Part shown: piece after piece, positions 29,615-50,750 of the stretch
Layout: every line of letters starts with the position of its first letter
Numbering within the stretch: the stretch's first letter is position 1
From: Bacteroidales bacterium
GTDB lineage: Bacteria; Bacteroidota; Bacteroidia; Bacteroidales; VadinHA17
NCBI GenBank assembly: GCA_003141715.1
Contig: PLNF01000048.1
Coordinates: forward strand, 1,486 to 65,485
Direction of reading: 5' to 3'
DNA: 64,000 bases
Notes under the pieces: generated by a model
Seen by the model: only the letters and a program-made list of their open reading frames with translations
What the model was told of the DNA's origin: nothing
The model's database searches: none
Translations under genes and position numbers: made by a program

Positions 29615-31069
29615 ATGTTATTACAGGTAAAAAAAAGAACATTAATTGCTGCCGGAGTTGTTTTAGTTTTTGCATTTATTCTGTTTTGGTGGTTATTGAA
29701 AGGTCAGCCTTTAGATCTTAGTGAAAGGATTCCGGGAATGGATGACCGTCCCAAAATGGAAGCAAAGTCAGATACAATTATCATCGGTCAGTTTTTTGAT
29801 ACTCTTTCTGAAATGGATGCAATGGTCGCAGGTGACTGGCCAAGGTTCAGAGGAGCTGACCTGGATAATATTAGTAAGGATACAACCCCTCTTGCAGAAT
29901 CGTGGGATACTTCAGGACCAGCCATTATCTGGAGAACCACACTGGGTGAAGGATATGCAGGTCCGGCTGTGCATAATGGACGGGTTTACCTTCTTGATTA
30001 TAACGAAAGAAAGAAAGCTGATGCTCTCAGATGTTTTTCCCTTTCATCAGGAAAAGAGTTATGGAGGCGTTGGTATTATGTTGATCTGAAAAGGAATCAT
30101 GGATATTCCAGAACTATTCCTGCAGTAACTGATAAATATCTTGTTACCATTGGCCCTCGATCGCATGTTATGTGTGTTGATCCGCTTACAGGTAAAATGT
30201 TATGGTCTATTGATCTTGAAAAAGAGTTTGGAATTCCTGGAACAGAAAAGGGAAGAATCACACCTGATTTTTATACTGGTCAATGTCCATTGATCGATAA
30301 TGATGTAGCTGTACTTGCCCCGGGAGGAAAAGCACTGATGATAGGATTAGATTGTGCATCAGGTAAAATAATCTGGCAGACACCTAATATTGACTCCATC
30401 CGGATGTCACACAGTTCGATAATGCCGATGATAATTCACGGGAAAAGAATGTATGTTTATAATGGCATTGGCGGAGTTTGTGGTGTTTCTGCTGAAAAGA
30501 CGGATATAGGAAAATTATTGTGGACCACAACTAAGTGGAGTCCGGCAACAACAGCTGCTTCTCCCCTGTTTCTTGGAAATAATGAAATAGCGGTTTTTGG
30601 AAGTTATGGTGCAGGTGGTGCCCGGATTGTAATAAATACCACCGGATCGGGATATTCAGCAACAGTAAAGGAACAACATAAAGCTACGAATGGGCTGGCA
30701 AGTGATCAGCAAACACCCATAATCGCAGGAACTTATATATGGAGCGTTTTACCTGAGAATGCCGGTACATTGAAAAAGCAATTGGTTTGTTATAAAAAAT
30801 CGGATCTATTGACAGCTGTATGGTCAAGTGGTAAAGAAAACAGATTTGGACGCGGACTTGGTCCGTATATTGTCAGCGGAAATAAATTATATCTTCTCGA
30901 TGATGATGGGAAACTTTACTTTTATAAAATTCAGGATAACAAAGTCATATTAATTGCAAGCCATAAGGTTATCAAAGGAATTGAGGCCTGGGGACCAATG
31001 GCAATTGCAGGAAAGTACCTCATTATGAGGGATGCAAGAAATTTACTTTGTCTTAATATTGGTAAATGA
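29615..31069 (+). CDS. Membrane-anchored PQQ-like (PQQ_2/BamB-fold) beta-propeller repeat protein, paralog 1
   Basis: 484 aa. N-terminal TM RTLIAAGVVLVFAFILFWWLL, WPRFRGADLDN entry motif, and repeated ...G-x-x-Y-x-x-D...G-K-x-L-W blades. Confidence 0.7.
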   Translation: MLLQVKKRTLIAAGVVLVFAFILFWWLLKGQPLDLSERIPGMDDRPKMEAKSDTIIIGQFFDTLSEMDAMVAGDWPRFRGADLDNISKDTTPLAESWDTSGPAIIWRTTLGEGYAGPAVHNGRVYLLDYNERKKADALRCFSLSSGKELWRRWYYVDLKRNHGYSRTIPAVTDKYLVTIGPRSHVMCVDPLTGKMLWSIDLEKEFGIPGTEKGRITPDFYTGQCPLIDNDVAVLAPGGKALMIGLDCASGKIIWQTPNIDSIRMSHSSIMPMIIHGKRMYVYNGIGGVCGVSAEKTDIGKLLWTTTKWSPATTAASPLFLGNNEIAVFGSYGAGGARIVINTTGSGYSATVKEQHKATNGLASDQQTPIIAGTYIWSVLPENAGTLKKQLVCYKKSDLLTAVWSSGKENRFGRGLGPYIVSGNKLYLLDDDGKLYFYKIQDNKVILIASHKVIKGIEAWGPMAIAGKYLIMRDARNLLCLNIGK

Positions 31070-31076
31070 ACAGAAG

Positions 31077-31997
31077 ATGAAAAAGAAAGTAGTAACTATT
31101 TTAGCAGTATTAATCATACTCGTCTTTATCGGGTACATAATCTTTGATTCTGTTAAACCTGCGGTTTCAGTAAAAAGTGAAACCAAAAATTCACAAATTA
31201 AGGAAATACCAGATGCCTGGAAGATTTCAAATGAGCTCAAGGTGAATGAAGGTTCCCTTAAGGCAGTAACTGTTACTACCGCAGGAAAAATATATCTCGG
31301 TGGTGATTCTTTTGTATCATGTTATGATAAAGATCTGAAACTCATCTGGAATGTGAAAACTCCTTCGCCTGTGACAGCTCTTTCGAACTATGGAGATACA
31401 GTTTTTGCATCAACAATAGAACAGATACTTGTAATGAATTCTGCTGGTAAGATATTGAGCGAATGGGGGCCATTTGAGGATAGCTGCATTATTACTTCTG
31501 TGAGTTCAAACAGAGAATTTATTGCCTTTGCCGATGCAGGAAATAAAATGGTTTTCATTCTTGACAAAAGTGGTGAGGTTAAAAAAATGATTGGCCAGAA
31601 TGACGGACAATTTGTCATCCCAAGTCCCTATTTTGAAGTAGCCCTCGATAATGAGAATAACCTGTTTGTAGCAAATACTGGACACCATCGGATTGAAACC
31701 CGTACAATTGATGGGGTTTTAAAAAGCTATTTCGGAGAGGCCGGAACAGATCCCGACCGATTCTGCGGTTGTTGTGCTCCTCCTCATTTCATACTCATTC
31801 CTGGGGGATTTGTAACTGCTGAAAAAGGAATTAACAGGATTAAGATCCTCAACAAAAAGGGAGAATTTGTTGAATTTGTCAATTCAAAAAATGACTTTAT
31901 TAAATCGGTTCCTCTGGATCTGGCTTCCGCAGACGGGAAAACAATTTATGGGGCTTATCCGGCGGACTCTAAGCTTTATGTATTTAACCGTAAATAA
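31077..31997 (+). CDS. Membrane-anchored NHL-repeat / 6-bladed beta-propeller protein
   Basis: ATG 31077 gives MKKKVVTILAVLIILVFIGYIIF (TM anchor). NLFVANTGHHRIETRTIDG is an NHL-type blade. A distinctive FCGCCAPPHF motif is present. Confidence 0.6.
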   Translation: MKKKVVTILAVLIILVFIGYIIFDSVKPAVSVKSETKNSQIKEIPDAWKISNELKVNEGSLKAVTVTTAGKIYLGGDSFVSCYDKDLKLIWNVKTPSPVTALSNYGDTVFASTIEQILVMNSAGKILSEWGPFEDSCIITSVSSNREFIAFADAGNKMVFILDKSGEVKKMIGQNDGQFVIPSPYFEVALDNENNLFVANTGHHRIETRTIDGVLKSYFGEAGTDPDRFCGCCAPPHFILIPGGFVTAEKGINRIKILNKKGEFVEFVNSKNDFIKSVPLDLASADGKTIYGAYPADSKLYVFNRK

Positions 31998-32140
31998 AAT
32001 AATAGAAATGCTACTAAAACGATAAGATTGCTTCGCTTCGCTCGCAATGACCCTGCAAGTTAGATAGATTATACGCTCAACGAGGAACGCGAAACGAGTA
32101 AAAAGCAACAAGCAACAAGTAACGAGTAATCAGACAATAT

Positions 32141-32305
32141 ATGACCAGAAATGAATTATTAAAAAAGCTTGGAAGATATCTTCTCCTGATGTTAATAGCT
32201 GTAATAGTCATTGCACTGGGAAAAAAGGTCGTGAGCGGGAATGATTGTTCAACATGTCCTGGCAAGGGGATTTGTAACGGTAAAACCGACTGTAATAAAT
32301 ATTAA
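32141..32305 (+). CDS. Unlisted 54-codon ORF: small membrane-anchored Cys-rich peptide
   Basis: My own translation is MTRNELLKKLGRYLLLMLIAVIVIALGKKVVSGNDCSTCPGKGICNGKTDCNKY, followed by a stop. It has one TM plus a C-x2-C-x5-C-x5-C tail. It ends 11 nt before the Tat-ferredoxin ATG. It falls below the 60-aa cutoff of the ORF track. Confidence 0.45.
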   Translation: MTRNELLKKLGRYLLLMLIAVIVIALGKKVVSGNDCSTCPGKGICNGKTDCNKY

Positions 32306-32316
32306 TTGCAGTAAGC

Positions 32317-32880
32317 ATGAAGGATGCTAAGAATAAATATCAGTCAAGGAGGGATTTTGTAAAAACTGCAGGTAAGCTGATTGTTACAGTACCACTGGTT
32401 ATTATACCTGCTTTTCTTATAAAAAAGATTTCAGCAGCAGGATATGTCTGGCAGATAGATCCTTTCAAATGCACACAGTGCGGACAATGCAAGACTAACT
32501 GTGTACTTACACCTTCTGCATCAAAATGTGTACATGCTTTCCGGATGTGTGGCTATTGTGATCTTTGTGGAGGCTATCTCCGTCAGGGAGTAAAAACGAT
32601 CAGCACCGGAGCGGAAAACCAGTTATGTCCAACCGGAGCAATAACTAGAAAATTTGTTGAAGAGCCTTATTTTGAATATACAATAAATGAAGAAATATGT
32701 GATGGATGTGCAAAATGTGTAAAGGGATGCGGTGATTTTGGAAACGGGTCACTTTATATGCAGATCAGGCATGACCGGTGTGTAAACTGCAATGAATGCT
32801 CAATTGCACGTACTTGCCCGTCGAATGCAATTTCTCGAATTCCTGTAAACATTGCTTACTTACCGAAAGACAAAAGATAA
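32317..32880 (+). CDS. Tat-signal poly-[4Fe-4S] ferredoxin (NapG/MauM/NosG-like)
   Basis: SRRDFVKTAG is a twin-arginine motif followed by a hydrophobic stretch. Cluster motifs: CTQCGQCKTNC, CGYCDLCGG...CPTGAI, CDGCAKCVKGC, CVNCNECSIARTCP. Confidence 0.75.
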   Translation: MKDAKNKYQSRRDFVKTAGKLIVTVPLVIIPAFLIKKISAAGYVWQIDPFKCTQCGQCKTNCVLTPSASKCVHAFRMCGYCDLCGGYLRQGVKTISTGAENQLCPTGAITRKFVEEPYFEYTINEEICDGCAKCVKGCGDFGNGSLYMQIRHDRCVNCNECSIARTCPSNAISRIPVNIAYLPKDKR

Positions 32881-32945
32881 AAGTAAAAATGGAAAAATGG
32901 AATGAAAAAACGGAGAACGTTAAACACTGAACCCTAAACTTATAG

Positions 32946-34211
32946 ATGAAAAAGGCTCTGCCATATATTGTTTTTATACTGCTATTATGCTGGCATGTGG
33001 TTCTTTTTGCCCAGGACAGGTTTCCGAGACCTGAATTTGAATCGGGGCATGTTTATCCGACAAACCAGATGCCAAAACCCAGGGTTCCGGGCTGGGAGTA
33101 TTTTGATGTTCTGATATTGACCGGAGCTTTGATAATGACAACCTGGCTGGCATTGAAAAAGCGTTCACGACAGGGTTTAATCTGGATGTCGGTCTTTTCT
33201 CTGGCTTATTTCGGTTTTTACAGAGAGGGTTGTATCTGTGCAGTCGGATCAGTTCAGAATGTATCGCTGGCTTTATTTAATACAGGATATTCAATTCCTC
33301 TTTCAGCACTTCTGTTCTTTATTATTCCTTTATTGTTTGCACTTGCCTATGGACGTGTATTTTGTTCTGGAGTCTGTCCCCTCGGAGCCATTCAGGAACT
33401 AACTGGCCTCAAACCGGTAAAGCTTCCAAAAGCTGTTGAATTAATTCTGGCCTTTGTACCTTTTATTTATCTTGGGATCGCTATCTTATTCGCTTCAACT
33501 AATAGCCAGTTTCTTATATGCAGGTATGATCCTTTCGTCGGAATATTCAGGCTGGATGCTCCTTACACAATGATAATCTTTGGAGCATTGTTACTTTTAG
33601 CAGGGATATTTGTTAACAGGCCTTACTGCAGGTTTCTCTGCCCCTATGGTGTCCTGCTTAATATCTTTTCAAGGTTTGCAGGAAAGCATCTGACAATAAC
33701 ACCTGCTGAATGTACGAATTGCAGACTTTGCGAAGATGTTTGCCCTTATGATGCGATAATTCCTTCAGATACAGATCAAAAGAGGGAAGAGCCGCAAAAG
33801 TCAAGGAAGCGTTTTATTATTTATTTCCTTTTTGTTCCCCTGTTTGCAGCTACAGGAGCATTTTTACTTCACAACCTCGCTCCCGCCTTGTCAGGGGCAA
33901 ATAATACAGTAAGACTTGCAAGAGAGATCAGAATCGAGAAGAAAACTGGTATTGAATCAGAGCTAAAAGATGTTGTCGCGTTCAAAGAATCAGGTAAGAC
34001 AGAATCAGAATTATATACAGAAGAAGAGTTAATCATCGGGCGATTCAGAAGAGGTTCTCCATGGGCTGGCGCGTTTTTGGGAATATCATTCGGAATAGGA
34101 ATGATAACACTCACAATAAGAAGTAAGAGAAGTGAATATAAACCCCATCAGGGGAAGTGTTATAGTTGTGGAAGATGTTTTAAATATTGTCCAATTAAAG
34201 TGAAAACATAA
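32946..34211 (+). CDS. NapH/MauN/NosH-type membrane polyferredoxin
   Basis: 421 aa and multi-TM. Two CX3CP motifs (FCSGVCPLG, YCRFLCPYG). Two 4Fe-4S motifs (CTNCRLCEDVCPYDAI, CYSCGRCFKYCP). Confidence 0.75.
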   Translation: MKKALPYIVFILLLCWHVVLFAQDRFPRPEFESGHVYPTNQMPKPRVPGWEYFDVLILTGALIMTTWLALKKRSRQGLIWMSVFSLAYFGFYREGCICAVGSVQNVSLALFNTGYSIPLSALLFFIIPLLFALAYGRVFCSGVCPLGAIQELTGLKPVKLPKAVELILAFVPFIYLGIAILFASTNSQFLICRYDPFVGIFRLDAPYTMIIFGALLLLAGIFVNRPYCRFLCPYGVLLNIFSRFAGKHLTITPAECTNCRLCEDVCPYDAIIPSDTDQKREEPQKSRKRFIIYFLFVPLFAATGAFLLHNLAPALSGANNTVRLAREIRIEKKTGIESELKDVVAFKESGKTESELYTEEELIIGRFRRGSPWAGAFLGISFGIGMITLTIRSKRSEYKPHQGKCYSCGRCFKYCPIKVKT

Positions 34212-35906
34212 ATGAAGTTTATTTTTACTGAAAAAGATATAAGTATTCTTAAAGTTATTAGTCAGATCGCAGGAGGATTTGCCCTTATTGTGGCAATGAC
34301 TATGATCTTCAGCCTGGTACAGTTAAAAACGGTTAATCCTTTAGACAATCCGGTACTGTTGTCGGTAAAAGAACAATACGACAAGGATCCATCGAATGCT
34401 GCTAAGGCTGAGCAGGTAAGGGCAATGGATCTGATGGCAAGAAAAGCTTATTTCAGTTCAAGATGGCAGGTGGAAACAGGTTCATATCTCCTGATTGCCG
34501 GGGTCATTATCTTCATTATTTGCCAGCGGATTATTTCAGAGAATGAAAAACTTGTACTTGTACTCGCTGATGCAAAAACTGATTCATCCATGCAACGGGG
34601 AAAAAACAGAAAATACCTGATTTCAGCAGTCATAATTATTTTTATTACAGCAATTATTGCATCTTTTTTTCTGCGTGCCGATCTCCCGGATATCTCAGGA
34701 AAAGCTCCGGGGTCCTCGAAGAAAGAGGAACGCAGCAATGAAAAGGCACCCAAACCCGATAAAACAAACTGGCCATTCTTTCGTGGTCAGGATAGTCGTG
34801 GAATTGCAGGAGGTACTGGATATCCGACCGAATGGGATGCTACAGCTGGAAAGAATATCGGTTGGAAAATTGAGGTACCTGAAAATGGAAAGAGCTCTCC
34901 TGTTATTTGGGAAGATAAAATTTTTATTACCGGAGCTCAGGAAAAGATTTGCGAGGTTTATTGCATTGATAAAAAAACAGGAAAAATACTATGGACCGGG
35001 TCTGCTTCTGATATCCCGGGCGAACCGGCAGTATTGCCTAAAATGGCTCAGGAAGCAGGGCTGGCTGTATCGACAGTAGCCACAAATGGTAAAGTGGTAT
35101 GTGCTGTTTTCTCAAATGGCAACCTTGTCTGCTTCGATATGGATGGGAAACAGAAATGGGCAAAAAACATAGGCGTCCCTGAAAACAGTTATGGTTATGC
35201 ATCTTCCCTGATGATTTATAAAGACATTCTGCTCGTTCAATTCGACAGTAATGTAAAGATATCGCTTATTGGATTTGATCTGGTAACGGGTGATCAGAAG
35301 TGGGAAACCCTGCGACATGGACATGCTGTATGGTCATCACCGGTTATGGCTTATTTCGCCGGAAAATCAGAACTGATAATAAACGGAAATCCATATGTGA
35401 GTGGTTATGATCCTTTAACAGGAAATGAACTCTGGGAAGTAGAATGCATGAGCGGAGATGTTGCTCCATCGGTCGCAGTAAACAGCACAATGACCTATGC
35501 CGTAACTGATTATGCAAAACTTGTAGCAATTAAACCTGGAAATGGAGTATCAATAGTTTGGCAAGACAACACCTACACTCCTGACGTTTCAAGCCCTGTA
35601 GCTACTGATCAGTTTTTGTTTGTATCAACAGGGAACGGTGATGTTGCATGTTATAATGCAGCAAAAGGAGATACATTATGGACACATTATTTTCAGAATC
35701 CTTTTTATGCTTCACCTATAATATCAGATGATATGGTTTATCTTCTTGACAGATCAGGCGTGATGCACATTGTAAAGGCAGGATCATCGTTCAGTTTGAT
35801 CGCTGAATCGCCGCTTGGAGAAGGTGCCGACTGTTCACCCGCATTTTCTGACAAGAAAATTTATATACGGGGAACGAAAAACCTTTATTGCATATCGAAG
35901 AAATGA
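34212..35906 (+). CDS. Polytopic-anchored PQQ-like beta-propeller protein, paralog 2
   Basis: 564 aa. About three N-terminal TM segments, then WPFFRGQDSRGIAGG and the propeller blades. The ATG directly abuts the upstream TAA. Confidence 0.7.
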   Translation: MKFIFTEKDISILKVISQIAGGFALIVAMTMIFSLVQLKTVNPLDNPVLLSVKEQYDKDPSNAAKAEQVRAMDLMARKAYFSSRWQVETGSYLLIAGVIIFIICQRIISENEKLVLVLADAKTDSSMQRGKNRKYLISAVIIIFITAIIASFFLRADLPDISGKAPGSSKKEERSNEKAPKPDKTNWPFFRGQDSRGIAGGTGYPTEWDATAGKNIGWKIEVPENGKSSPVIWEDKIFITGAQEKICEVYCIDKKTGKILWTGSASDIPGEPAVLPKMAQEAGLAVSTVATNGKVVCAVFSNGNLVCFDMDGKQKWAKNIGVPENSYGYASSLMIYKDILLVQFDSNVKISLIGFDLVTGDQKWETLRHGHAVWSSPVMAYFAGKSELIINGNPYVSGYDPLTGNELWEVECMSGDVAPSVAVNSTMTYAVTDYAKLVAIKPGNGVSIVWQDNTYTPDVSSPVATDQFLFVSTGNGDVACYNAAKGDTLWTHYFQNPFYASPIISDDMVYLLDRSGVMHIVKAGSSFSLIAESPLGEGADCSPAFSDKKIYIRGTKNLYCISKK

Positions 35907-39353: not shown

Positions 39354-39385
39354 TTAGTTAACATTGATTTGTTTAAAAATGAAGA

Positions 39386-39463
39386 CCCCCTTCCCAACCT
39401 TCCCCCACGGGGGAAGGCGTATCAATACATTTCCCCCTTGGGGGAAACTAGAAAGGGGGTAAT
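39386..39463. repeat. About 75-nt G/C-tract nested-hairpin intergenic element, copy A
   Basis: cccccttcccaaCCTTCCCCcacGGGGAAGGcgtatcaatacaTTTCCCCCttgGGGGAAActagaaagggggtaat. Near-identical to the copy at 56940..57013. Confidence 0.85.
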
Positions 39464-41898: not shown

Positions 41899-41899
41899 T

Positions 41900-42565
41900 A
41901 TGTTAAATATCAATAATATATCAAAGTCATTCATTCAACGTGGTTTGGTCCTTGATAATCTATGCCTTGAAGTGAATGAAGGTGAGACTCTTGCCATAAT
42001 GGGACCATCCGGTTCAGGGAAGACTACACTTATGAATATTATTGGTCTGTTAGATAAGCCTGACAAGGGAGAGATTATTTTCAGAGGGGCTCCAATAGCA
42101 AACTTTACAGAGGACGAGTCTGCAGATTACAGAAACCTGAATATCGGTTTTGTATTCCAGGAGCATCTGCTGCTACCGTATCTTACTGTTTCAGAGAATA
42201 TACAGCTTCCTTTACTTGCATCAAAACATTCACAGGAAGAACTTTCTGTTAAACAGCAATATTTAAAAGGATTAATGGAAAAGGCCGGCATTTCTGATCT
42301 TAAAGACAAGTATCCTTTTCGAATCTCCTGTGGAGAAGCTCAACGGGCTGCTTTGGTAAGAGCCCTGGCGAATAACCCGTCAATTCTTCTTGCAGACGAA
42401 CCAACCGGATCTCTTGATTCAAAAAATGCAGAAAATATGGGTGAACTTCTTCTTGAGATGAACAGAGAATTTGGGATAACAATCATTCTGGCAACCCATT
42501 CGTTTGACCTTGCAAATAAGATGTCAAAGATATTACGGCTTGAGGAAGGCAAATTAATAGTCTGA
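41900..42565 (+). CDS. ABC transporter ATP-binding protein (MacB/LolD type)
   Basis: Walker A GPSGSGKTTL, signature variant ISCGEAQRAAL, Walker B LLADEPTGSLD. The ATG lies 1 nt after the GT4 stop. Confidence 0.85.
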   Translation: MLNINNISKSFIQRGLVLDNLCLEVNEGETLAIMGPSGSGKTTLMNIIGLLDKPDKGEIIFRGAPIANFTEDESADYRNLNIGFVFQEHLLLPYLTVSENIQLPLLASKHSQEELSVKQQYLKGLMEKAGISDLKDKYPFRISCGEAQRAALVRALANNPSILLADEPTGSLDSKNAENMGELLLEMNREFGITIILATHSFDLANKMSKILRLEEGKLIV

Positions 42566-42590
42566 ATTAAAAAGAAAATAACTGTTTCTA

Positions 42591-45500
42591 ATGCCTGGCA
42601 CATTCCAGATAATAATCAAATCAATAAAATTCTATAAAAAGCCGGTCCTGTACCAGGTTCTTATAATCATTCTGCTGTGCGCCGTCATAACCGGATCATT
42701 ACTGACAGGGAGATCTGTTAAGGAGAGTCTAAAAAAATCAGCCTCAGAACGCCTTGGAAATACAGGCATTCTCATTAGTTCAGGAATCAGATACTTTGAT
42801 TCTGAACTTGTTCAAAGAATGAAAGACAGCTCCGGTATATTATGCACCGGGATACTTGAAATGAACGGTTATTGTCAGAGTCTGAATTCGCAAAAAGGGG
42901 CGTTCAATACGCATATTTATGGTGTCAATAAAGACTTTTTTATTTTTCACGGACATGATTCAATGGCTATCAAACCAGGAGAAGTTGCTGTTAATAAACG
43001 GCTTGCAGATTATCTTGGAATTAAACCGGGTGACGACCTGATAATACGATTCAAGGTCATAAGCGACATACCTTCAGATGCACCATTTGCACCTGGCGGA
43101 GGTGCCGGAAAGTCAATTGTGATGAAAATAGGAAGTATTCTTGAACCAACAAAAACCGGAAACTTCTCCTTGTCAATCAGTCAGATAACACCTATGAATA
43201 TCTTCATGAACCTGTCAAATATAGAAGATGATCAAGGCAACCATTTTAAACTAAACAGGTTGCTTATTAAAAGAGACAATATCAATTCCCTAAAACAAAT
43301 ATCTGGTGCCTTAAAGCATTATTTGAAACCCTCCGATATTGGCCTGAGGTTAAGAACAGTGAAGAAGACAGGAGAATATGAACTCATTTCTGACAGGATT
43401 TTTATAGATGAATCAATTTTAAAAGAGATTGGCAACTTGTTGCCCAATTCTTATCCTGTTATAACGTACCTTGGTAACAGGTTCGAGGCGGATACCAAAT
43501 CGACTCCCTACTCATTTGTTTCAGCATTGCCTTCTTCATTATATCATGATATTGATGCCGGCAATGGAATGATAATAAACAAATGGATGGCAAATGATCT
43601 TTTAGTGCGGGAAGGGGACACTGTTAAAATGTATTGGTATACACCTGATTCACTAAATAAACTTATTGAAAAAAGCAGCGGTTTTATTGTCAATCATATT
43701 GTAGATATGAAGGGTATCTGGTCAGATTCTCTTCTTATGCCTGATTTTCCCGGAATCTCAGGAAAAGAATCATGCTCTGACTGGGATGCCGGTGTTCCCA
43801 TAAAAATGCATGAAATTCGCGCTAAAGATGAGGATTACTGGAATAGATACAGAGGTACACCCAAGGCATTTATCAATTATGATAAGGGTAAGGAGCTGTG
43901 GGGAAATAATTTTGGCCCCGCGACTGCTATCCGTTATCCTGCAGGTGTAACAGAAAAAGAGATAGAAGATAAACTTGCAGGATCGCTTGATCCTCTAAAA
44001 ATGGGGTTCAGTATAAAAGATCTGTCGGATGAATCATTTAAAGCTGCAAATGAGAGTGTTGATTTCGGTACTTTGTTCCTGAGTCTGGGGTTTTTCCTCA
44101 TTCTGGCTACACTGGTTTTGTTATCGTTCGCGGCCTCTTCATATTTTGATTCTAAAAGAAAGCATATAATAACATTATTTGCCCTGGGATTTAAAAACAG
44201 GTGGATTGCACAACTACTATTTCTCGAATCAGGATTGATAAGTATTGCCGGATGCTCAATTGGAGTATTTGCCGGTTATCTGGTTAATATTATTATAACC
44301 AGGGCTTTGAATACTGTTTGGAATGGTGCAGTACAGACCGATACACTTGATGCGTATTTTAATCTTTTGCCAATAATTTCAGGATTTCTATTGACATTCC
44401 TGACCATTATGATATTTATGCTGGTTAAGGTTAAACGTTTCCTGAATGGGTTGAATAAGAGGGAAAAGGAGATTTACAATACTCCTTCAATCCTTAATAA
44501 TCTGTTTTTATTACTTACATCAGCTATTGTAACAATTTCATTATTTGTACTTTCTATATTATTCAGAGACAAGCAACTCACTTTCTCGTTTGCCTCAGGT
44601 ATTGTGCTTTTGCTTACATTGATCTTATTATGGAGGCAATATTATATAGGCAGATTTATTAATAATACAGGAAGAATCAAAAATAGAAAACAGTTATCGC
44701 ATCTCTATTACTCTTTTAATCCGTCTAATGCTGTAACACCAATTCTTTTTATAGCTGCAGGAATTTTTACTGTCTTTATCACCGGTGCAAACAGGATGAC
44801 TTTTAATGAAAAACAGGTTAAACGTTCAGGTGGTACCGGCGGTTATTTGCTATGGTGTGAAAACACTATCCCTTTAAAAGAAGATCTGAATACAGTATCC
44901 GGAAGGAAAACAACCGGACTTGACAACGATCAGCTTTCGGAGATGAGTTTTGTCCAGATGAAAAGGTATTCAGGCAATGACGCCAGCTGTCTGAATCTTA
45001 ACCATATTACATCTCCTCCTCTTCTGGGAATTGATCCTGACGATTTTATAGCGAAAAAGTCTTTTGCTTTTTCAAAAGTACTCATAGCTAATAGCATTGA
45101 GAATCCATGGCAGTTTCTGAATCTTCCTTCAGAAAACAATACAATTTATGGCATTGCTGATCAGACTGTTCTCGATTGGGGACTGAAACTAAAACCGGGA
45201 GATACTTTAGTCCTGAGAGCTGAGAATGGACGACCTCTGAATATTATTATTGCTGCAGGATTACAATCATCTGTTTTTCAGGGTAATGTACTCATTGGAA
45301 AGGAAAATTTCACAAAGTATTATCCTTCTGTTTCCGGAAGTCAGGTATTGCTTGTAGATGGTAAGAGTTCGTTAACTGATTTATATAAAAGTACTTTGAA
45401 CGAAAGGCTGGAAAATTATGGTGTAAATATTGAAAAAACATCTGATCGCCTTGCAACATTTTATAAAGTTACAAATACATATCTCTCAGTATTTGGAGTT

Positions 45501-45854
45501 TTTGGAGCATTTGGAATGATAATTGGTATTGCCGGAATTGGATTTGTACTTTTACGGAACTATAACCAGCGAAAAAATGAATTTGCGCTTCTGCTTGCTA
45601 CAGGCTTTCATGTAAAAAAGATCAGAAGAATGATTCTCTCAGAACAAGTGATAATTCTTTTTGCCGGAGTTTCAGCAGGCATTGTTTCTGCCCTTGTTGC
45701 AACTTCGTCATCAATTAAAAACAGCCCCGATATACCATGGTTGTTTATAATCCTGATGATTCTGGCGATAGTGATCACAGGTTTATTTGCCATGTTTCTG
45801 TCTGTGAGATCAGTGACAAAGGATTCACTAATTGCCAGTCTGAAAAATGAATAG
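42591..45854 (+). CDS. Large double-FtsX-domain ABC permease (1087 aa)
   Basis: An N-terminal TM is followed by a large extracytoplasmic domain and a TM bundle. This pattern is repeated, which is the MacB/YbbP-like architecture. Follows the ATPase gene. Confidence 0.75.
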   Translation: MPGTFQIIIKSIKFYKKPVLYQVLIIILLCAVITGSLLTGRSVKESLKKSASERLGNTGILISSGIRYFDSELVQRMKDSSGILCTGILEMNGYCQSLNSQKGAFNTHIYGVNKDFFIFHGHDSMAIKPGEVAVNKRLADYLGIKPGDDLIIRFKVISDIPSDAPFAPGGGAGKSIVMKIGSILEPTKTGNFSLSISQITPMNIFMNLSNIEDDQGNHFKLNRLLIKRDNINSLKQISGALKHYLKPSDIGLRLRTVKKTGEYELISDRIFIDESILKEIGNLLPNSYPVITYLGNRFEADTKSTPYSFVSALPSSLYHDIDAGNGMIINKWMANDLLVREGDTVKMYWYTPDSLNKLIEKSSGFIVNHIVDMKGIWSDSLLMPDFPGISGKESCSDWDAGVPIKMHEIRAKDEDYWNRYRGTPKAFINYDKGKELWGNNFGPATAIRYPAGVTEKEIEDKLAGSLDPLKMGFSIKDLSDESFKAANESVDFGTLFLSLGFFLILATLVLLSFAASSYFDSKRKHIITLFALGFKNRWIAQLLFLESGLISIAGCSIGVFAGYLVNIIITRALNTVWNGAVQTDTLDAYFNLLPIISGFLLTFLTIMIFMLVKVKRFLNGLNKREKEIYNTPSILNNLFLLLTSAIVTISLFVLSILFRDKQLTFSFASGIVLLLTLILLWRQYYIGRFINNTGRIKNRKQLSHLYYSFNPSNAVTPILFIAAGIFTVFITGANRMTFNEKQVKRSGGTGGYLLWCENTIPLKEDLNTVSGRKTTGLDNDQLSEMSFVQMKRYSGNDASCLNLNHITSPPLLGIDPDDFIAKKSFAFSKVLIANSIENPWQFLNLPSENNTIYGIADQTVLDWGLKLKPGDTLVLRAENGRPLNIIIAAGLQSSVFQGNVLIGKENFTKYYPSVSGSQVLLVDGKSSLTDLYKSTLNERLENYGVNIEKTSDRLATFYKVTNTYLSVFGVFGAFGMIIGIAGIGFVLLRNYNQRKNEFALLLATGFHVKKIRRMILSEQVIILFAGVSAGIVSALVATSSSIKNSPDIPWLFIILMILAIVITGLFAMFLSVRSVTKDSLIASLKNE

Positions 45855-45861: not shown

Positions 45862-47220
45862 TTATTTTTTCCCAACTGCCACAAGGTATTTCTGAGTTCT
45901 GAAGAATATCATACCATCAGTAATGGCAGGAGCAGTTAAACATATATCATTCATAGGTATTTCGGCGAGTTGTTTAAATGAAATGCCATCCTCAATGATA
46001 TACACAATTCCCTGTTCGTCAACGATGTACAGTTTTCCATCTGAAGCAACAGGAGAAGCAATAAAACTCTGTGAATTACCGAGTTTTGCATGATATAACT
46101 CTTTACCTGTGCCGGCATCATAGCAAACAACAGTGCCATTCCAGTTAACATTATACAGATGATCTCTGTAAAGAAGCAAAGTATGAATATACGAACCTCC
46201 CCGGGGAATACTCCATTTCACATATTCATTCAGAATTCCTGTCGGTTTAAGAGTGATATCTCCGGAAGCATTAGATTTAATCGCATATATTGGTGAACTG
46301 GGCCCATGTGCGCTATTGAAATATATCAGGTCCTTGCCAATTACGGGAGTCGGAATCGGAACATCGCCCCCACCCGACATCCGCCATATTTCTTTTCCTG
46401 TTTCAAAATCATATCCTCCCCGATGTTTGTACCCGTTTACAGCGATACGCGTTTTATCCCCGTCTTTATAAATATTTGGTGTGCACCACCCGGGATATTC
46501 GTCTCTTTTTTTATTCCATAATTCCTTTCCAGTCTTCAGATCATAGGCAGCCAAAAATGAATTCTCAAGAACGTCACATTGAACTATCACTACACCATTA
46601 TATATTATAGGTGAACTGGCAAACTCCCATTCGGCAGCAACATAATCGTATGCAACGGATTTTAGCACGCCAAAATTCTTTTTCCAAACAAGATTCCCAT
46701 TATAATCATAACAATACAAGCCTTCAGATCCGAAAAACGCCACAGCATATTTTCCATCAGTCGCTACTGAAGGATTGGCATGCGTCGATTTAGGATGCCG
46801 CTTTATTTTGGGAATGCCCTTGTATGCTGTTTTTTCCCAGATTATTTTTCCCGAATTTTTGTTAATGCAGAAAACTTTCCAGTCATGTACCGAGCTATCA
46901 GCTACCGGCATGCCATCTCCATAAATACCGGTCTTGATCCCTTGTTTATCAGAGTTGCTTACGGCAGTGGTGATAAATAACTTATCGCCCCAAATAACCG
47001 GACTTGATAGTCCGAGGCCGGGTATCTCGGTTTTCCATCTCACATTTATCATTTTTTGAAAGTCAAATGATTCGGGAAGGTTTGCATTATCAAGAACTCC
47101 TGATGCCATATACCCGCGAAATCCCGGCCATTGACGCTCCGGTACTATTTGTCCGGTAAGATTAAATGAAAGAGTGAATAAAGTAATAAATGTTCCGAGT
47201 GACAGAAAAATGGATCTCAT
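45862..47220 (-). CDS. Secreted PQQ-like beta-propeller protein, paralog 4
   Basis: 452 aa. Signal peptide MRSIFLSLGTFITLFTLSFNLTGQ and WPGFRGYMASGV entry motif. The LSSPVIWGDKLFITTA blade parallels paralog 2 (KSSPVIWEDKIFITGA). Confidence 0.75.
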   Translation of the reverse strand: MRSIFLSLGTFITLFTLSFNLTGQIVPERQWPGFRGYMASGVLDNANLPESFDFQKMINVRWKTEIPGLGLSSPVIWGDKLFITTAVSNSDKQGIKTGIYGDGMPVADSSVHDWKVFCINKNSGKIIWEKTAYKGIPKIKRHPKSTHANPSVATDGKYAVAFFGSEGLYCYDYNGNLVWKKNFGVLKSVAYDYVAAEWEFASSPIIYNGVVIVQCDVLENSFLAAYDLKTGKELWNKKRDEYPGWCTPNIYKDGDKTRIAVNGYKHRGGYDFETGKEIWRMSGGGDVPIPTPVIGKDLIYFNSAHGPSSPIYAIKSNASGDITLKPTGILNEYVKWSIPRGGSYIHTLLLYRDHLYNVNWNGTVVCYDAGTGKELYHAKLGNSQSFIASPVASDGKLYIVDEQGIVYIIEDGISFKQLAEIPMNDICLTAPAITDGMIFFRTQKYLVAVGKK

Positions 47221-47241: not shown

Positions 47242-48639
47242 TTATTTCTTGCCAGTCAGTTTCCCGTTATTCATCCACAAAGTGATTCTGCCCATCCTGT
47301 CATATGGAGGATAAGCATGCATATCACCTGTTACAAAATCCATTAACCCGTCGTTATTGAAGTCAGCTGACTCCAGCGTTAAAATGTGGGTCGGAGAACT
47401 GGCTATGTTATGAAGTACAAATTGCATGTTACCGACATTCTCCAGCCATATAAAGCTCTGAGATTCAGGTTTATCCCATAAATTAAAGGCACTTACGCAA
47501 AATATATCCAGATCTCCGTCATTATCTATGTCAACGGGCCTCGCATTATATGCCCCGATGAAAGTGCAAATCCTATGGAATTCAAAATTAAAGTTCCCCT
47601 TGTTTTCAAGCCACTGAATTCCATGCCATGGCCGACCCTGGGGAGGTATGTAATCAAAAGCGTCGCCGTTTGTATACAAGATGTCATCGTCACCATCCTT
47701 GTCCAGATCGCAAATGTAAATCCCGCTTGAACCAAAGTCTTCATTATTTGAGCCATATATCAGCTTTGAAGTGAAATTCCCTTTTCCATCATTGATGAAA
47801 CCGTAGATTTCCTCCCATTCCTGGCTGACAAGTGAGATAATGTCAAGATCTCCATCCTTATCAATATCATCTATTATAACATTAATTGGACCAGAGAGAT
47901 TCTGCAGTATATGGCTTTTAAACTGCCAGTTTCCAAGATTCTCAATCCATCGGGTTTCTCCATCATCATATCCAAATTGTGCAACAGCAAGGTCCAAATC
48001 ACCATCACCATCCAAATCACCTGCCCTGACATCTGATACACGGGCTATCTTGTCAACAACTACATGTTTTGTGAAATGATTCTTACCATCATTTTCGAGT
48101 ATGACAACTGAGCCGATTTTATCATTACTGGGAAAAATTAAGCCAAGGACAGCGACCAGAATATCATTATCTCCGTCTTTGTCAAAATCAATGACCTGAA
48201 CGTGGGCCGGTGCATTCAGACCATCAGCAATAACTGTTTCTGTATAAACACCGGCAGGAAACTGCCGGATCCAGTTAACAGAGTTGCTCTTACAATCACA
48301 AACAATGATATCCATTAATCCATCTCCATCAAGATCTGCGGCCTGAACATTTGAAATAAGCGGGGGCTCTTCAAACGTTTGTCCAACCGGAATAGGATTT
48401 AGGAAATCTATTTTAGCACCAACAGGAGTATTATCTGATTTTCCCGATACATTATCTTTTGAACCCGTTCTATTAACGATCCGTTTGATAACCTCGTTTC
48501 TGCTCATTCCTTTTTGTTTAGCCTGGTAACTAACTAACAGAAAAGGGATACCAACAATCAGGATTAAAACAATAACTAATAGTATCAGGGTTTTAAGACC
48601 TTTTTTATGATTTACATGTGGACGATTATCTTTTGGCAT
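47242..48639 (-). CDS. Membrane-anchored FG-GAP/VCBS repeat protein (7 Ca-loop repeats)
   Basis: TM LKTLILLVIVLILIVGIPFLLV. Seven D-x-D-x-D-G-x-x-D loops: DLDGDGLMD, DFDKDGDND, DLDGDGDLD, DIDKDGDLD, DLDKDGDDD, DIDNDGDLD, DFNNDGLMD. Confidence 0.8.
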   Translation of the reverse strand: MPKDNRPHVNHKKGLKTLILLVIVLILIVGIPFLLVSYQAKQKGMSRNEVIKRIVNRTGSKDNVSGKSDNTPVGAKIDFLNPIPVGQTFEEPPLISNVQAADLDGDGLMDIIVCDCKSNSVNWIRQFPAGVYTETVIADGLNAPAHVQVIDFDKDGDNDILVAVLGLIFPSNDKIGSVVILENDGKNHFTKHVVVDKIARVSDVRAGDLDGDGDLDLAVAQFGYDDGETRWIENLGNWQFKSHILQNLSGPINVIIDDIDKDGDLDIISLVSQEWEEIYGFINDGKGNFTSKLIYGSNNEDFGSSGIYICDLDKDGDDDILYTNGDAFDYIPPQGRPWHGIQWLENKGNFNFEFHRICTFIGAYNARPVDIDNDGDLDIFCVSAFNLWDKPESQSFIWLENVGNMQFVLHNIASSPTHILTLESADFNNDGLMDFVTGDMHAYPPYDRMGRITLWMNNGKLTGKK

Positions 48640-48688: not shown

Positions 48689-48803
48689 ATCTAAATGTGC
48701 TTTATGACAGCACTGCATTGAAATAAATTAATTATCATTGAAAATTATAGGATCCTAATTTTAGAAGTTGTGAAATTCAGAGTATTTAATGATATTTCTT
48801 TAG

Positions 48804-50750
48804 ATGAAAGTTAGTGGCAGACATTTTCTTAATCTCTTGATAATCTTTGGTTTTGGATTGCTACCAGCTATCTTAAGTCAGTTTTTTACAGAAAAGCCAA
48901 CCAGTCGGCATATTCATATCAGGAGTTTCCGGTATGGGAAAGATCCGTATGTAATCAGATGTAACAGAGGTGACACGCTTCATTTAACTTTTTCGACTGA
49001 CGATACCGGACATTCATTTTTTCTTCAGGAGTTTGATATTGATGTCAAAATTACTCCGTCAAGTGATGAGGTTAATGTTTTTAAAACAAGTGATCCAACC
49101 AGTAAACCTGTTATTAAAAAGGAAGTAACTCTGATTGCAAAGCATCCGGGGATTTATAATTACATAGTTTCAAAGAGTAACTATCGTTGTCATGTCTGGT
49201 GCGGGCCGATGCATGCTTTTGAGCAGGGTAAACTTATAATATTGCCGAATACACTGCTGGTCTTCAGCCTGGGTAGCCTTCTTGGGATATTATTAATCTG
49301 GTTAGTTGCAATTTTCAAAAATGTCAAACCTGAGATAAGAAGCGACAGCGAAAAAGCCGGTTATAAAGATTTACTTAAAGAATCAGGTTTTTTAAGGGGG
49401 ATTGTAGTATCAAGGTATACTCAGGCAGCTCTCACCATTATTACTATGGTCATGATTTATATTGTTATTCTGACCTCTGTTTTTGGCACCAAAGTATCTG
49501 GTAGAAACCTGGGAGTCCTTTTAATGTGGGCCGTATGGTTATTTGCACTGGTAGCAATAATTACTCCATTTTTTGGAAGATTCTGGTGTACGATCTGTCC
49601 TTTGCCCTTTTTCGGAGATCTTATCCAGAGAAAATCATTTTTTAATCCGCTTATAGGCAAAACCAAAAATTTAAACAACAAGTTTTCAGGACTTTTCCTG
49701 AAGTGGCCTGAATGGTTAAAAAATGACTGGTTAAGATTAATAGTCTTCTTGTTACTTGCGACATTTTCAACTACACTTGTCGCAACACCCTTTATTTCAG
49801 GTATTACGGTACTTATGCTGATGCTTGTTCCAACATTGATGTCAGGTATTTGGGAACTGAGGGCATTTTGTCGTTATGTATGTCCGGTGAGTGTTTTTGT
49901 AGGACCGTTTTCAAGGATGAGTACTTTGTCTCTCAGAAATAAATCTCAGGATATTTGTGATCAATGCAAGCCCCGCTATTGTGAGAATGGAAATACCAGT
50001 GGGTGGGCATGCCCGTACGGCCTTAATGTCGGCGAAATAAAGGAAAATTCTGATTGCGGGCTATGTCTCGAATGTCTGCGAAGTTGCACATATAATAATG
50101 TTTCACTCTATTCACGACCTCTTGCATCTGAAAGGGGAACCCGTAGTCTGAGTGAAGCGTGGATGACAATTGCTGCTTTTACTATTGCTATAATTTATTG
50201 CATTCTTTATCTTGGACCATGGCCTGTTGTTCGTGATTATGTAAATATACTGGATAAGCATAACTGGGGTTTATTTGGTATATATTCTCTGATAATGTGG
50301 ACATTAGTGCTGATAATAGTTCCGGGAATTATTTATCTCCTTTCTCTCCTTGGCCTCAAACTTTCAAAAATTAAAGACACTCCAATGGAAGTATTTCTTG
50401 AATTTGCCGGATCTCTTCTACCTTTTGCGCTTATGAACTGGATAGCATTTGTAATACCAATGTTATTTGTAAATGTCACTTTTATAAAGCAATCGTTATC
50501 AGATCCTTTTGGCTGGGGATGGGATTTCTTTGGCACGGCAAATACTCCATGGCACCAGTTTTTACCACAGTTTATTCCATGGTTTCAGGCAGTAGCTGTA
50601 TTGAGCGGGCTATATTTGAGCTTAAGAAATATAAGAAAGTCAAGGATGTTTTATGAATTGAATCCGAAACAGATTTTAAATATTAGTTTGCCCATAAGTC
50701 TGTTTATCACAGGAGTGGCAGTAGCCATGTTGGTTTTCTTTACCAATTAA
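48804..50750 (+). CDS. Cupredoxin-like N-terminal domain fused to a NapH/NosR-type membrane polyferredoxin
   Basis: 648 aa. N-domain motifs: GDTLHLTFSTDDTGHSF and YRCHVWCGPMHAFEQGKLIILP (C-x3-C-G-x2-H). Then a multi-TM region with WCTICPLP and FCRYVCPV (CX2-3CP motifs). Also CDQCKPRYCENG...ACPYG and CGLCLECLRSC. Confidence 0.65.
   Translation: MKVSGRHFLNLLIIFGFGLLPAILSQFFTEKPTSRHIHIRSFRYGKDPYVIRCNRGDTLHLTFSTDDTGHSFFLQEFDIDVKITPSSDEVNVFKTSDPTSKPVIKKEVTLIAKHPGIYNYIVSKSNYRCHVWCGPMHAFEQGKLIILPNTLLVFSLGSLLGILLIWLVAIFKNVKPEIRSDSEKAGYKDLLKESGFLRGIVVSRYTQAALTIITMVMIYIVILTSVFGTKVSGRNLGVLLMWAVWLFALVAIITPFFGRFWCTICPLPFFGDLIQRKSFFNPLIGKTKNLNNKFSGLFLKWPEWLKNDWLRLIVFLLLATFSTTLVATPFISGITVLMLMLVPTLMSGIWELRAFCRYVCPVSVFVGPFSRMSTLSLRNKSQDICDQCKPRYCENGNTSGWACPYGLNVGEIKENSDCGLCLECLRSCTYNNVSLYSRPLASERGTRSLSEAWMTIAAFTIAIIYCILYLGPWPVVRDYVNILDKHNWGLFGIYSLIMWTLVLIIVPGIIYLLSLLGLKLSKIKDTPMEVFLEFAGSLLPFALMNWIAFVIPMLFVNVTFIKQSLSDPFGWGWDFFGTANTPWHQFLPQFIPWFQAVAVLSGLYLSLRNIRKSRMFYELNPKQILNISLPISLFITGVAVAMLVFFTN

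Follow-up and report, generated by a model that had tools for sequence, protein, structure and literature searches.

A widespread, previously undescribed operon of anaerobic bacteria combines periplasmic β-propellers with a Bfu-type flavoprotein and NapG/NapH-like ferredoxins

A 64-kb stretch of contig PLNF01000048.1 from a Bacteroidales bacterium of the VadinHA17 lineage (assembly GCA_003141715.1), hereafter the window, carries between positions 29615 and 50750 a dense cluster of genes encoding β-propeller proteins interspersed with genes for iron-sulfur (Fe-S) and flavin proteins (Table 1). All 14 large open reading frames (ORFs) of the locus are present in the window, and the ORFs, motifs and domains listed in the original prediction, which was made from the sequence alone, were recovered with small corrections only. 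The likely start of the NHL gene was moved to 31077 upon reading of the translation (the ORF itself opens at 31032), and those of the family-4 glycosyltransferase (GT4) and ATP-binding cassette (ABC) ATPase genes were moved to 40612 and 41900, respectively, following gene calls. The original prediction treated the region as one 15-gene locus. Comparison with related loci resolves it into a 12-gene operon (including a small ORF), a clade-specific propeller paralogue (prop4) and a neighbouring two-gene unit. The operon is real and has a wide distribution among anaerobic bacteria, the human gut species Parabacteroides distasonis being one of its carriers; it is also undescribed, no description of such a cluster having been found in the full-text literature searched by the names of its components.

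Table 1. Genes of the locus in the window (64 kb) and the terpenoid module found upstream of prop1 in related loci. TM, transmembrane; aa, amino acids; numbers after profile names are E-values.
Feature	Coordinates	Strand	Description	Supporting matches or features
prop1	29615..31069	+	Membrane-anchored eight-bladed PQQ_2-type propeller	PQQ_2 6.6e-21; TM residues 10-28
NHL	31077..31997	+	Six-bladed NHL-type propeller with N-terminal TM anchor	NHL matches in PDB phmmer search
54-aa small ORF	32141..32305	+	One TM helix and C-x2-C-x5-C-x5-C tail	
Tat-ferredoxin	32317..32880	+	NapG-like polyferredoxin, predicted 4 x [4Fe-4S]	SRRDFVK; Fer4 families
NapH-like	32946..34211	+	NapH/NosH-like integral membrane Fe-S protein	Fer4_5 1.2e-16
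prop2TM	34212..35906	+	3-TM N-terminal domain followed by PQQ_2 propeller	PQQ_2 1.5e-27
BfuC-BfuB fusion (NuoE/F, 807 aa)	35888..38311	+		2Fe-2S_thioredx, Complex1_51K, NADH_4Fe-4S, Fer4
BfuA-derived Fe-S protein (349 aa)	38304..39353	+		Fer2_4, Fer4_20, Fer4_Nqo3
prop3	39492..40607	+	Secreted or anchored eight-bladed PQQ_2/ACSF4-type propeller	Beta-prop_ACSF4 1.5e-57; PQQ_2 2.3e-35
GT4 glycosyltransferase	40612..41898	+		Glycos_transf_1 9e-18
LolD/MacB-type ABC ATPase	41900..42565	+		ABC_tran 7.7e-32; LolD TIGR02211 7e-61
Duplicated FtsX permease (1087 aa)	42591..45854	+	~10 TM	FtsX x2 (2.4e-20)
prop4	45862..47220	-	Clade-specific PQQ_2 propeller	PQQ_2 6.4e-18
FG-GAP	47242..48639	-	Seven-bladed propeller with TM anchor	FG-GAP_3 1.1e-41, seven stretches
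Cupredoxin-NapH	48804..50750	+	NosR-like architecture	Fer4_5 7.7e-6; NapH 2e-6
Terpenoid module	L087/L088 3888-9992; L089 2498-8611; L092 2575-8733	same strand as prop1		

Domains were called with Pfam and NCBIfam profiles, with phmmer searches of the PDB and with AF2 models compared by Foldseek. Related loci were collected by scanning one genome per GTDB species with the 349-aa Fe-S protein as the anchor; this yielded 516 relatives. The top 80 loci, each with 10 kb on either side, were retained, and blastp was used to compare every ORF in them with the window proteins. Eleven genes, namely, prop1, NHL, Tat-ferredoxin, NapH-like, prop2TM, the NuoE/F fusion, the Fe-S protein, prop3, GT4, the ABC ATPase and the FtsX permease, are collinear in the majority of these loci, and the complete set is found in 36 of the 80 loci. 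The first eight occur in exactly this order, on one strand, in 47 loci, most of the others ending at contig edges. Collinearity is kept down to 34-37% anchor identity, across families and phyla: it extends to Parabacteroides, Bacteroidaceae, Prevotella, Alistipes, Tannerella, Saccharicrinis and Maribellus and, beyond the Bacteroidales, to Victivallales, candidate division FCPU426, Muiribacteriota and a metagenome-assembled genome labelled Eubacteriales, with a partial locus in Planctomycetaceae. From prop1 through FtsX, the homologues are, in short, syntenic across phyla and not scattered among related genomes. The order of GT4, ABC and FtsX varies among the loci and both Victivallales loci (L075 and L078) lack these three genes next to the core, and hence the first eight genes constitute the minimal core. 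Core genes in the window are separated by gaps of a few bases or overlap, except for intervals of ~320, 65 and 139 bp. The longest of these, between the NHL and Tat-ferredoxin genes, holds the 54-aa ORF. Within the window's clade, at least 18 loci have a homologous ORF at this place; in distant clades, none was detected. The small protein gave no meaningful match in Pfam. A promoter and terminator scan of the locus was uninformative, given that promoters of Bacteroidota are not covered by it and that the matches were near the shuffled expectation.

Further indication that the gene products belong together comes from gene fusions. In three independent sequences (P0203, L059 at 4469-6532 and L071 at 4331-6373), the Fe-S protein is fused to prop3 via a hydrophobic segment, which in L059 and L071 ends in the lipobox-like sequences LLSGC or LLTGC. 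In such fusions, one polypeptide spans the membrane, with an Fe-S domain on the cytoplasmic and a propeller on the periplasmic side, supporting the existence of a transmembrane complex. Two apparent prop3-GT4 fusions (L027 and L037) were dismissed as artefacts, one resulting from a run of N and the other merely having no in-frame stop codon before the GT4 start. In L053, L061 and L080 (Victivallales, Odoribacter and Planctomycetaceae), a homologue of the 349-aa Fe-S protein is encoded by itself among unrelated genes, so that the anchor family is wider than the operon.

The 3′ part of the region behaves differently. The prop4 gene is confined to the window's clade (loci with at least ~57% anchor identity), where it is at times tandemly duplicated, and its nearest paralogue is the propeller of prop2TM (27-31% identity to prop2TM orthologues). 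In L133, the cupredoxin-NapH protein of which is 78% identical to that of the window, the FG-GAP/cupredoxin-NapH pair directly abuts the asnB, glycyl-radical-enzyme and activase genes, and the ~17.6-kb block from prop1 to prop4 is absent at that site; the difference between L133 and the window looks like an insertion/deletion polymorphism. Because L133 keeps both genes without this block, FG-GAP and cupredoxin-NapH form a separable, divergent pair, and a single 15-gene unit, as originally proposed, is rejected. A gene for a TPR protein lies between prop4 and FG-GAP in L132.

The redox part of the operon includes the 807-aa flavoprotein and the Fe-S protein encoded immediately downstream of it. 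These had been predicted to be a fused NuoE/NuoF-type flavoprotein and a 2Fe-2S/4Fe-4S protein, and the domains are indeed present, but the pair is not simply NuoE/F: it corresponds to a BfuC-BfuB fusion and a truncated BfuA of the electron-bifurcating Bfu family. This family is defined by a BfuBC core in which BfuB carries extra clusters, an N-terminal [2Fe-2S] and C-terminal 2x[4Fe-4S], that are missing in non-bifurcating homologues, and 17 BfuB clades have been left without an assigned function (PMC9304861). Of the features that define the family, which at the level of activity include the coupled conversion of NAD(H), ferredoxin and a third substrate, the flavoprotein of the window displayed in sequence tests all structural ones, that is, a NuoF-like BfuB, the extra BfuB clusters and a NuoE-like BfuC, arranged as a NuoE [2Fe-2S] domain, a second [2Fe-2S] domain, a NuoF FMN/NADH domain with a [4Fe-4S] cluster and C-terminal 2x[4Fe-4S]. 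The NuoE/BfuC domain comprises the N-terminal 175 residues (2Fe-2S_thioredx, 1.5e-46 at residues 34-175), with C102, C107, C144 and C148 conserved; the NuoF part matches Complex1_51K (6.6e-39) and NADH_4Fe-4S (3.5e-30), and its C663, C666, C669 and C709 are conserved in 68 orthologues. Residues 199-803 of the fusion align end to end with residues 7-595 of NfnB (9n5u_B; 5e-199), every Cys of the aligned NfnB region being paired with a Cys in the window protein, and the next matches in the PDB are StnB (8oh5_B), a NiFe-HydB and three HydB chains (named entries 7q4v, 8a6t and 7p5h). Judging from these comparisons, the flavoprotein is a BfuC-BfuB fusion of the Bfu family that is predicted to handle NADH and, by homology, ferredoxin.

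The 349-aa Fe-S protein is predicted to hold a [2Fe-2S] cluster, a GltD-type 2x[4Fe-4S] pair and HydA/NuoG-type clusters. Its residues 1-173 match StnC (8oh5_C; 2e-38) and NfnA (9n5u_A), and the cluster region matches HydA, whereas the GltD-type FAD/NADP(H) domain is absent, the three Fe-S families of Table 1 being the only ones found by Pfam. The relatives of this protein fall into two size classes, one of ~350 aa, as in the window, and the other of ~510-530 aa, with a Rossmann remnant where the window protein has a deletion; furthermore, a 706-aa relative, P0232, keeps a full Pyr_redox_2 domain. Since relatives retain a Rossmann domain at the deletion site, the BfuA of the operon has lost its FAD/NADP(H) domain, and the 349-aa protein is best described as a truncated BfuA of the NfnA/StnC type, that is, a chain of clusters without a catalytic end. 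By the features tested, the system thus classifies as a member of the Bfu family but, lacking the FAD/NADP domain of BfuA, not as Nfn-Bfu.

The two ferredoxin-like proteins encoded between NHL and prop2TM are the predicted link to the periplasm. The presence of a polyferredoxin with a twin-arginine translocation (Tat) signal and of a membrane polyferredoxin with CX3CP motifs had been proposed previously, and the motifs, the Fer4 families and Fer4_5 are all there. Across 58-72 orthologues of the redox proteins, the Tat motif and the Cys ligands are conserved; in the Tat-ferredoxin itself, R11, R12 and F14 of the signal and 16-17 Cys are conserved in 58 orthologues. The NapH-like protein contains two CX3CP motifs (C140-x3-C144-P and C228-x3-C232-P) and two CX2CX2CX3CP motifs in addition to its TM segments, all of them conserved, and its 2x[4Fe-4S] ferredoxin domain is interrupted by a TM hairpin. 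Against the NapH/MauN profile TIGR02163 (cut-off 213 bits), it scores 67.4 bits (1.3e-18), and the cupredoxin-NapH protein scores 27.5 bits, which makes the NapH-like protein a relative, not a member, of the NapH/MauN family. The analogy with nos and mau clusters drawn in the original prediction therefore holds for the NapG/NapH-like pair, with the reservation of the low score, but goes no further: no Pfam or NCBIfam match to NosZ (CuZ propeller and CuA), NosD or NosL was found in the locus and none of the three recurs in related loci, nor does the locus contain a matching Pfam or NCBIfam family for MauA/MauB or amicyanin.

The six propellers all have an N-terminal hydrophobic segment, in agreement with the signal peptide or TM anchor assigned to each of them beforehand. 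When the window is translated in all six frames, the sequence W-P-x-F-R-G is found four times and no more (WPRFRG, WPFFRG, WPLFRG and WPGFRG), each time at the N-terminal edge of a PQQ_2 propeller; Pfam recognizes PQQ_2 in all four. Among orthologues, W-x-x-[FY]-R-G is kept in prop1, prop3 and prop4, is mostly degenerate in prop2TM and is absent from the 47 extra propellers of the loci. With 42-48% identity across phyla, prop1 is the best conserved non-Fe-S periplasmic component; its conserved residues include C140, C187, C224, H162, H266 and a KRNHGxSRT loop. The AF2 model of prop1 (pLDDT 77.8, pTM 0.84) is an eight-bladed propeller, the top Foldseek matches of which are BamB (2e-18) and tetrathionate hydrolase (2e-14). 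The NHL gene follows prop1 collinearly in 47 of the 80 loci. Its product is weakly recognized by Pfam NHL, below the cut-off (E-value 0.009); it matches the ScyF NHL profile (3e-6), and the assignment is solid against solved NHL domains in the PDB, namely, Thin (8e-14) and TRIM71 (1e-11), with 2-3 matched stretches. This protein carries an invariant vicinal Cys pair, C247-C248, in the sequence F-x-G-C-C-x-P. In prop2TM, F23, P43, R70, D73, R77 and G90 of the three-TM membrane domain are conserved, and prop3, which has a signal-like N-terminus, always follows the Fe-S gene in related loci.

Existing annotations label these proteins only as 'BamB', 'polyferredoxin' or 'PQQ-like repeat protein'. 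At curated thresholds, the propellers fall outside the families to which such names refer: against the BamB profiles TIGR03300/NF008351 (cut-off 285 bits), prop3 scores 133 bits and the others 29-77 bits, and against the PQQ dehydrogenase profiles TIGR03075/TIGR03074 (cut-off 480 bits), the propellers score 26-69 bits. As predicted, the ORFs of the locus also contain no recognizable terminal enzyme. None includes a CxxCH motif for haem c, and none has a molybdopterin, H-cluster or NosZ domain detectable by Pfam. The same applies to the relatives, where clustering of the unassigned flanking ORFs of the 80 loci gave only lineage-specific families and no further gene family that recurs across lineages, implying that none of the lineages provides a terminal enzyme in the vicinity of the cluster.

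For GT4, the ATPase and the permease, the assignments made from the sequence alone agree with Pfam and NCBIfam. GT4 contains a conserved N-terminal Y-C-x-N-C-x-R-D (CxxC-type) motif, and, of the PDB entries to which an activity is assigned, PimB' and BshA come closest to it. The ATPase matches the MacB ATPase domain (1.6e-44) in addition to LolD, without reaching the curated cut-offs. The permease has two large periplasmic domains, each with one conserved Cys (C395 and the second in S-C800-L-N-L-N), and resembles the ADOP duplicated permease (3e-11); no sequence relative was found in the PDB and there is no match to MacB_PCD.

Of the separable pair, the FG-GAP protein had been credited with seven DxDxDG motifs; FG-GAP_3 indeed covers seven stretches, but only six of the motifs are exact, the seventh being a degenerate DFNNDG. 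The cupredoxin-NapH protein consists of a periplasmic N-terminal domain, a NapH-like membrane core, cytoplasmic Fe-S motifs and extra TM segments. The residues H70, C129, C133, G134, H137 and E140 are invariant in 24 homologues and form the pattern H...C-x3-C-G-x2-H-x2-E, a CuA-like arrangement in which Glu takes the place of the Met of the CuA consensus, H...C-x3-C-x3-H-x2-M. The isolated domain has no cupredoxin match in Pfam at E-values up to 10, and phmmer against the PDB gave only faint matches to CoxII of ba3 oxidase (E-value 0.4). However, with a low-confidence, all-β AF2 model (pLDDT 54.6) as the query, the top 50 Foldseek matches were all cupredoxins (best E-value 4.5e-3, TM-score ~0.5). 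Together, the model and the motif are suggestive of a putative cupredoxin fold.

In a large sister clade, the operon is extended at its 5′ end by a terpenoid module. When the prop1 orthologue from Parabacteroides sp. PF5-6 was used as the query, close relatives turned up in several cultured species, among them Viscerimonas tarda, Mangrovibacterium marinum and P. distasonis, the last with a cluster of 763 sequences. In L092, M. marinum and contigs of the P. distasonis type, prop1 is directly preceded, on the same strand, by genes for a Fer4-like protein, a radical SAM protein, a DUF116-polyprenyl synthase fusion, a Prenyltrans-like protein and an SHC-like cyclase, five in all, and the catalytic motifs of the module are intact (DADDTS of the DxDDT type, two DDxxD and CX3CX2C). 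At least nine further loci have an SHC-like gene upstream of prop1. A reverse scan of metagenomes, with the DUF116-polyprenyl synthase as the anchor, placed nearly all modules for which the locus includes downstream sequence next to a propeller/Bfu cluster. Two short loci, L116 and L121, stop within ~2 kb of the module and show no cluster, and in one locus (46% identity) the order is rearranged. The radical SAM protein is closer to NirJ-like (2e-19) than to HpnH-like (2e-11) proteins, and the cyclase, with 78 bits versus a cut-off of 431, is a distant SHC-like protein. It may belong to the 'SHC-like' cyclase clade of open function in FCB/PVC bacteria (PMC12324236, PMC7306690). The fusion of a dedicated terpenoid module to the operon in this sister clade makes an isoprenoid lipid a possible substrate of the system. 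Where the original prediction had proposed ABC-assisted maturation or export of the propellers, the module suggests a role directed at lipids.

Other neighbours are restricted to particular lineages. In a rumen/gut subclade (L057, L059, L067, L074 and L082), a MIP-family channel and a CobW/COG0523-like GTPase are encoded next to the cluster; the two genes lie on the same strand, after FtsX and an extra propeller, in L059, L074 and L082 (in L059, between the extra propeller and GT4) and on the opposite strand in L057. This combination is suggestive of a small neutral solute and of a step in which metal is inserted. Upstream of prop1 in L091, a member of the window's clade, the interval 2624-9848 encodes an extra PQQ_2 propeller, a single-FtsX permease, an ABC ATPase, a TonB-dependent receptor and another PQQ_2 propeller. 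A LytS-type kinase and a LytTR regulator, candidates for a dedicated regulator, are encoded upstream of the cluster in L087 (1226-3007; P. distasonis-type) and in L090 (5611-7385; Viscerimonas tarda). The locus of the window has no regulator of its own. In the window, the genes divergent from prop1 (24358-29220, minus strand) encode a glycyl radical enzyme (PFL2/glycerol dehydratase; TIGR01774, 793 bits), its activase and asparagine synthase B, and the opposite flank (50864-62736) contains a TetR regulator and an HlyD-MFS-OEP efflux operon, followed by genes for rhamnose utilization (FGGY kinase, RhaA, RhaM, RhaT and α-L-rhamnosidase). The TetR gene is part of the efflux operon and not of the propeller/redox operon.

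We consider it fairly probable that the genes at 29615-45854, together with prop4, represent one conserved operon for an envelope-spanning electron-transfer machine. From the gene content, gene order and fusions, the predicted topology, the Bfu identity of the flavoprotein and the loss of the catalytic domain from BfuA, we infer how electrons might reach the propellers and on what the ABC system and GT4 might act. In such a machine, NADH, with or without reduced ferredoxin, would feed the BfuC-BfuB flavoprotein, which would pass electrons to the BfuA-derived Fe-S wire. As the FAD domain is gone, this chain of clusters would dock on the cytoplasmic ferredoxin domain of the NapH-like protein, the cytoplasmic clusters of which would then hand electrons over to the Tat-exported 4x[4Fe-4S] polyferredoxin in the periplasm. 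The polyferredoxin would be in complex with four membrane-tethered propellers, prop1, NHL, prop2TM and prop3. Of these, prop1, which is the most conserved non-Fe-S periplasmic part and has conserved Cys, His and Arg residues, and NHL, with its invariant Cys pair, would be the most plausible places for the missing active site; prop1 accordingly stands as a candidate catalytic subunit. The MacB/LolC-type ABC system would probably perform mechanotransmission on a periplasmic or membrane ligand, and GT4 would probably glycosylate a lipid, both perhaps acting on the same, possibly isoprenoid, substrate. The most likely direction of flow would be outward, with reduction of a membrane or periplasmic acceptor, for which an isoprenoid-derived lipid is the leading candidate. 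In its most novel form, which we put forward only tentatively, the proposal is that of a new class of periplasmic redox enzymes, in which cofactor-poor prop1 and NHL would rely on Cys or metal chemistry, the Bfu module would confurcate electrons from NADH and ferredoxin through the NapH/NapG-like conduit, and the FtsX-type ABC system would present a membrane isoprenoid; in the P. distasonis/Mangrovibacterium clade, the substrate would be the product of the SHC-like cyclase.

Several observations weigh against this proposal. The sequence does not constrain the direction of electron flow, and, to our knowledge, how electrons pass across the membrane in NapH-type proteins is not understood even for NapGH. 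There is no recognizable cofactor site in prop1, which is structurally closest to the non-catalytic BamB. GT4, ABC and FtsX do not adjoin the core in the Victivallales loci, and the terpenoid module is missing from the 64-kb window, from L091 of the same clade and from Viscerimonas.

The terpenoid module can be read in another way, namely, as part of a machine for the biosynthesis and export of a cyclic terpenoid glycolipid. Following the logic of hopanoid clusters, the redox module would then feed a modification step, GT4 would glycosylate the product, and its extraction and transfer to the outer membrane would fall to the FtsX-type ABC system and the propellers. The union of operon and module, catalytic motifs included, that is seen in P. 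distasonis and Mangrovibacterium as well as in metagenomic relatives, the presence of the lipid mannosyltransferase PimB' among the nearest solved, named relatives of GT4 and the resemblance of the LolD-like ATPase and duplicated FtsX permease to lipoprotein or lipid extractors are all compatible with such a role. We nevertheless regard it as doubtful: the eight-gene core occurs without adjacent terpenoid genes in the window's clade, Victivallales, FCPU426 and Muiribacteriota, the periplasmic four-cluster polyferredoxin and the Bfu module are foreign to any known lipid pathway, and the radical SAM protein is only distantly HpnH-like. Alternatively, the acceptor could be a soluble periplasmic compound, such as a sulfur compound, peroxide or oxygen, or a metalloid, with prop1 and NHL as the Cys/metal terminal reductase of an anaerobic respiratory or detoxifying system in which NapH would also serve the quinone pool. 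NapG/NapH-like pairs are typical of periplasmic reductase systems, and conserved Cys and His in prop1, the Cys-Cys pair of NHL and the Cys of the FtsX periplasmic domains would suit such chemistry, as would the resemblance of prop1 and prop3 to tetrathionate hydrolase, a propeller enzyme without a cofactor. The in-operon MIP channel and CobW-like metallochaperone of the rumen/gut subclade and the TonB-dependent receptor upstream in L091 point the same way, and Bfu enzymes with peroxide or a quinone as the third substrate have been predicted (PMC9304861). However, no known catalytic motif is present, GT4 and the terpenoid module are left without a role and the need for at least four propellers is not explained, which makes this possibility, too, an unlikely one.

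Reversal of the flow appears improbable. In this case, electrons taken from a substrate by a periplasmic propeller dehydrogenase would travel inward through the Tat-ferredoxin and then NapH, and the Bfu core would bifurcate them to NAD+ and ferredoxin. For characterized Bfu enzymes, which use H2, formate or NADPH, this is indeed the physiological direction (PMC9304861), and the propellers belong to the PQQ-like superfamily. Yet, bifurcation to ferredoxin requires a donor of ~-400 mV, and no such donor site is recognizable in the periplasm; the propellers are below the PQQ-dehydrogenase thresholds and, being Sec- or TM-targeted, could not carry a cofactor inserted in the cytoplasm. Finally, the genes might not form a functional unit at all, if BamB-like housekeeping propellers and an ABC transporter merely happened to lie beside the remnant of an Nfn-like transhydrogenase. 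The source annotations of the propellers as 'BamB' and the separability of the FG-GAP and cupredoxin-NapH genes could be taken to favour such an explanation, but it is already contradicted by the synteny as read from the genomes: gene order is kept across phyla, Fe-S/propeller fusions exist, BamB thresholds are not reached and the propellers of the window carry TM anchors of the inner-membrane type instead of lipoboxes. We therefore consider it extremely improbable.

Should the envelope-spanning electron-transfer model prove true, the operon would encode the first Bfu-type bifurcating module wired to the periplasm, extending the family beyond the predicted cytoplasmic and proton-pumping types, and a defined source of electrons in the cytoplasm would be known for NapH-like proteins. 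Among anaerobic Bacteroidales, the operon is common in soils, sediments and digesters and in the rumen and human gut, and it also occurs in other phyla. Given that the cultured gut species P. distasonis carries the version fused to the terpenoid module, both the role of the propellers and the products of the SHC-like cyclases of FCB/PVC bacteria would become testable.

Several known systems resemble parts of the locus. The propellers share the fold and the PQQ_2 repeats with BamB, tetrathionate hydrolase and other PQQ-like eight-bladed propellers, from which they differ in having TM anchors or Sec signals and no outer-membrane lipobox, in scoring below the BamB and PQQ-dehydrogenase cut-offs and in being encoded in one operon with redox genes. 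The ABC system, with its LolD-like ATPase and FtsX-domain permease with large periplasmic domains, has the make-up of type VII transporters (MacB/LolCDE/FtsEX), but the permease, at 1087 aa and ~10 TM, is duplicated and without a PDB match, and the operon includes no MacA-like adaptor. In the sister clade, the operon resembles hopanoid clusters (Shc, HpnH, HpnI, HpnN) in combining a class-II cyclase with DxDD, a radical SAM protein, a glycosyltransferase and a dedicated exporter; it is distinguished by a DUF116-polyprenyl synthase fusion in place of squalene synthase, an ABC/FtsX exporter in place of an RND one and the additional Bfu/NapH/propeller block. The cupredoxin-NapH protein alone is reminiscent of NosR, likewise a single polypeptide that combines cytoplasmic Fe-S motifs and a NapH-like membrane core with a redox domain at its periplasmic N-terminus, although the FMN-binding domain of NosR is replaced by the putative CuA-like cupredoxin, there are extra C-terminal TM segments and the partner is an FG-GAP propeller, not NosZ.

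For the redox core, the closest counterparts are NapGH, NosGH and MauMN on the one hand and Bfu enzymes on the other. With the former, the operon shares a Tat polyferredoxin with at least 16 Cys next to a polytopic CX3CP membrane protein with a cytoplasmic 2x[4Fe-4S] domain; unlike in those systems, the membrane protein scores far below the family cut-off, an extra TM hairpin divides its ferredoxin domain and there is no NapA, NosZ or MauAB partner. Moreover, the pair described here would be coupled to a cytoplasmic NADH flavoprotein and not to the quinone pool alone. With NfnABC of Caldicellulosiruptor, StnABC of Sporomusa ovata and HydABC, the operon shares the complete BfuB architecture, a NuoE-type BfuC and a BfuA-like N-terminus, but here BfuC and BfuB are fused and BfuA has no FAD/NADP domain. 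A NapH-like protein, a Tat-exported polyferredoxin and periplasmic propellers are not described as partners of any Bfu type in PMC9304861, and neither propellers nor NapH are mentioned in that article or its supplement. On sequence criteria, the system lies outside NapH/MauN, nos, mau, BamB and PQQ dehydrogenases and would work like a Bfu enzyme joined to a conduit of the NapGH/NosGH type; there is a substantial chance that it is more distinct than a variant of the Bfu and NapGH themes.

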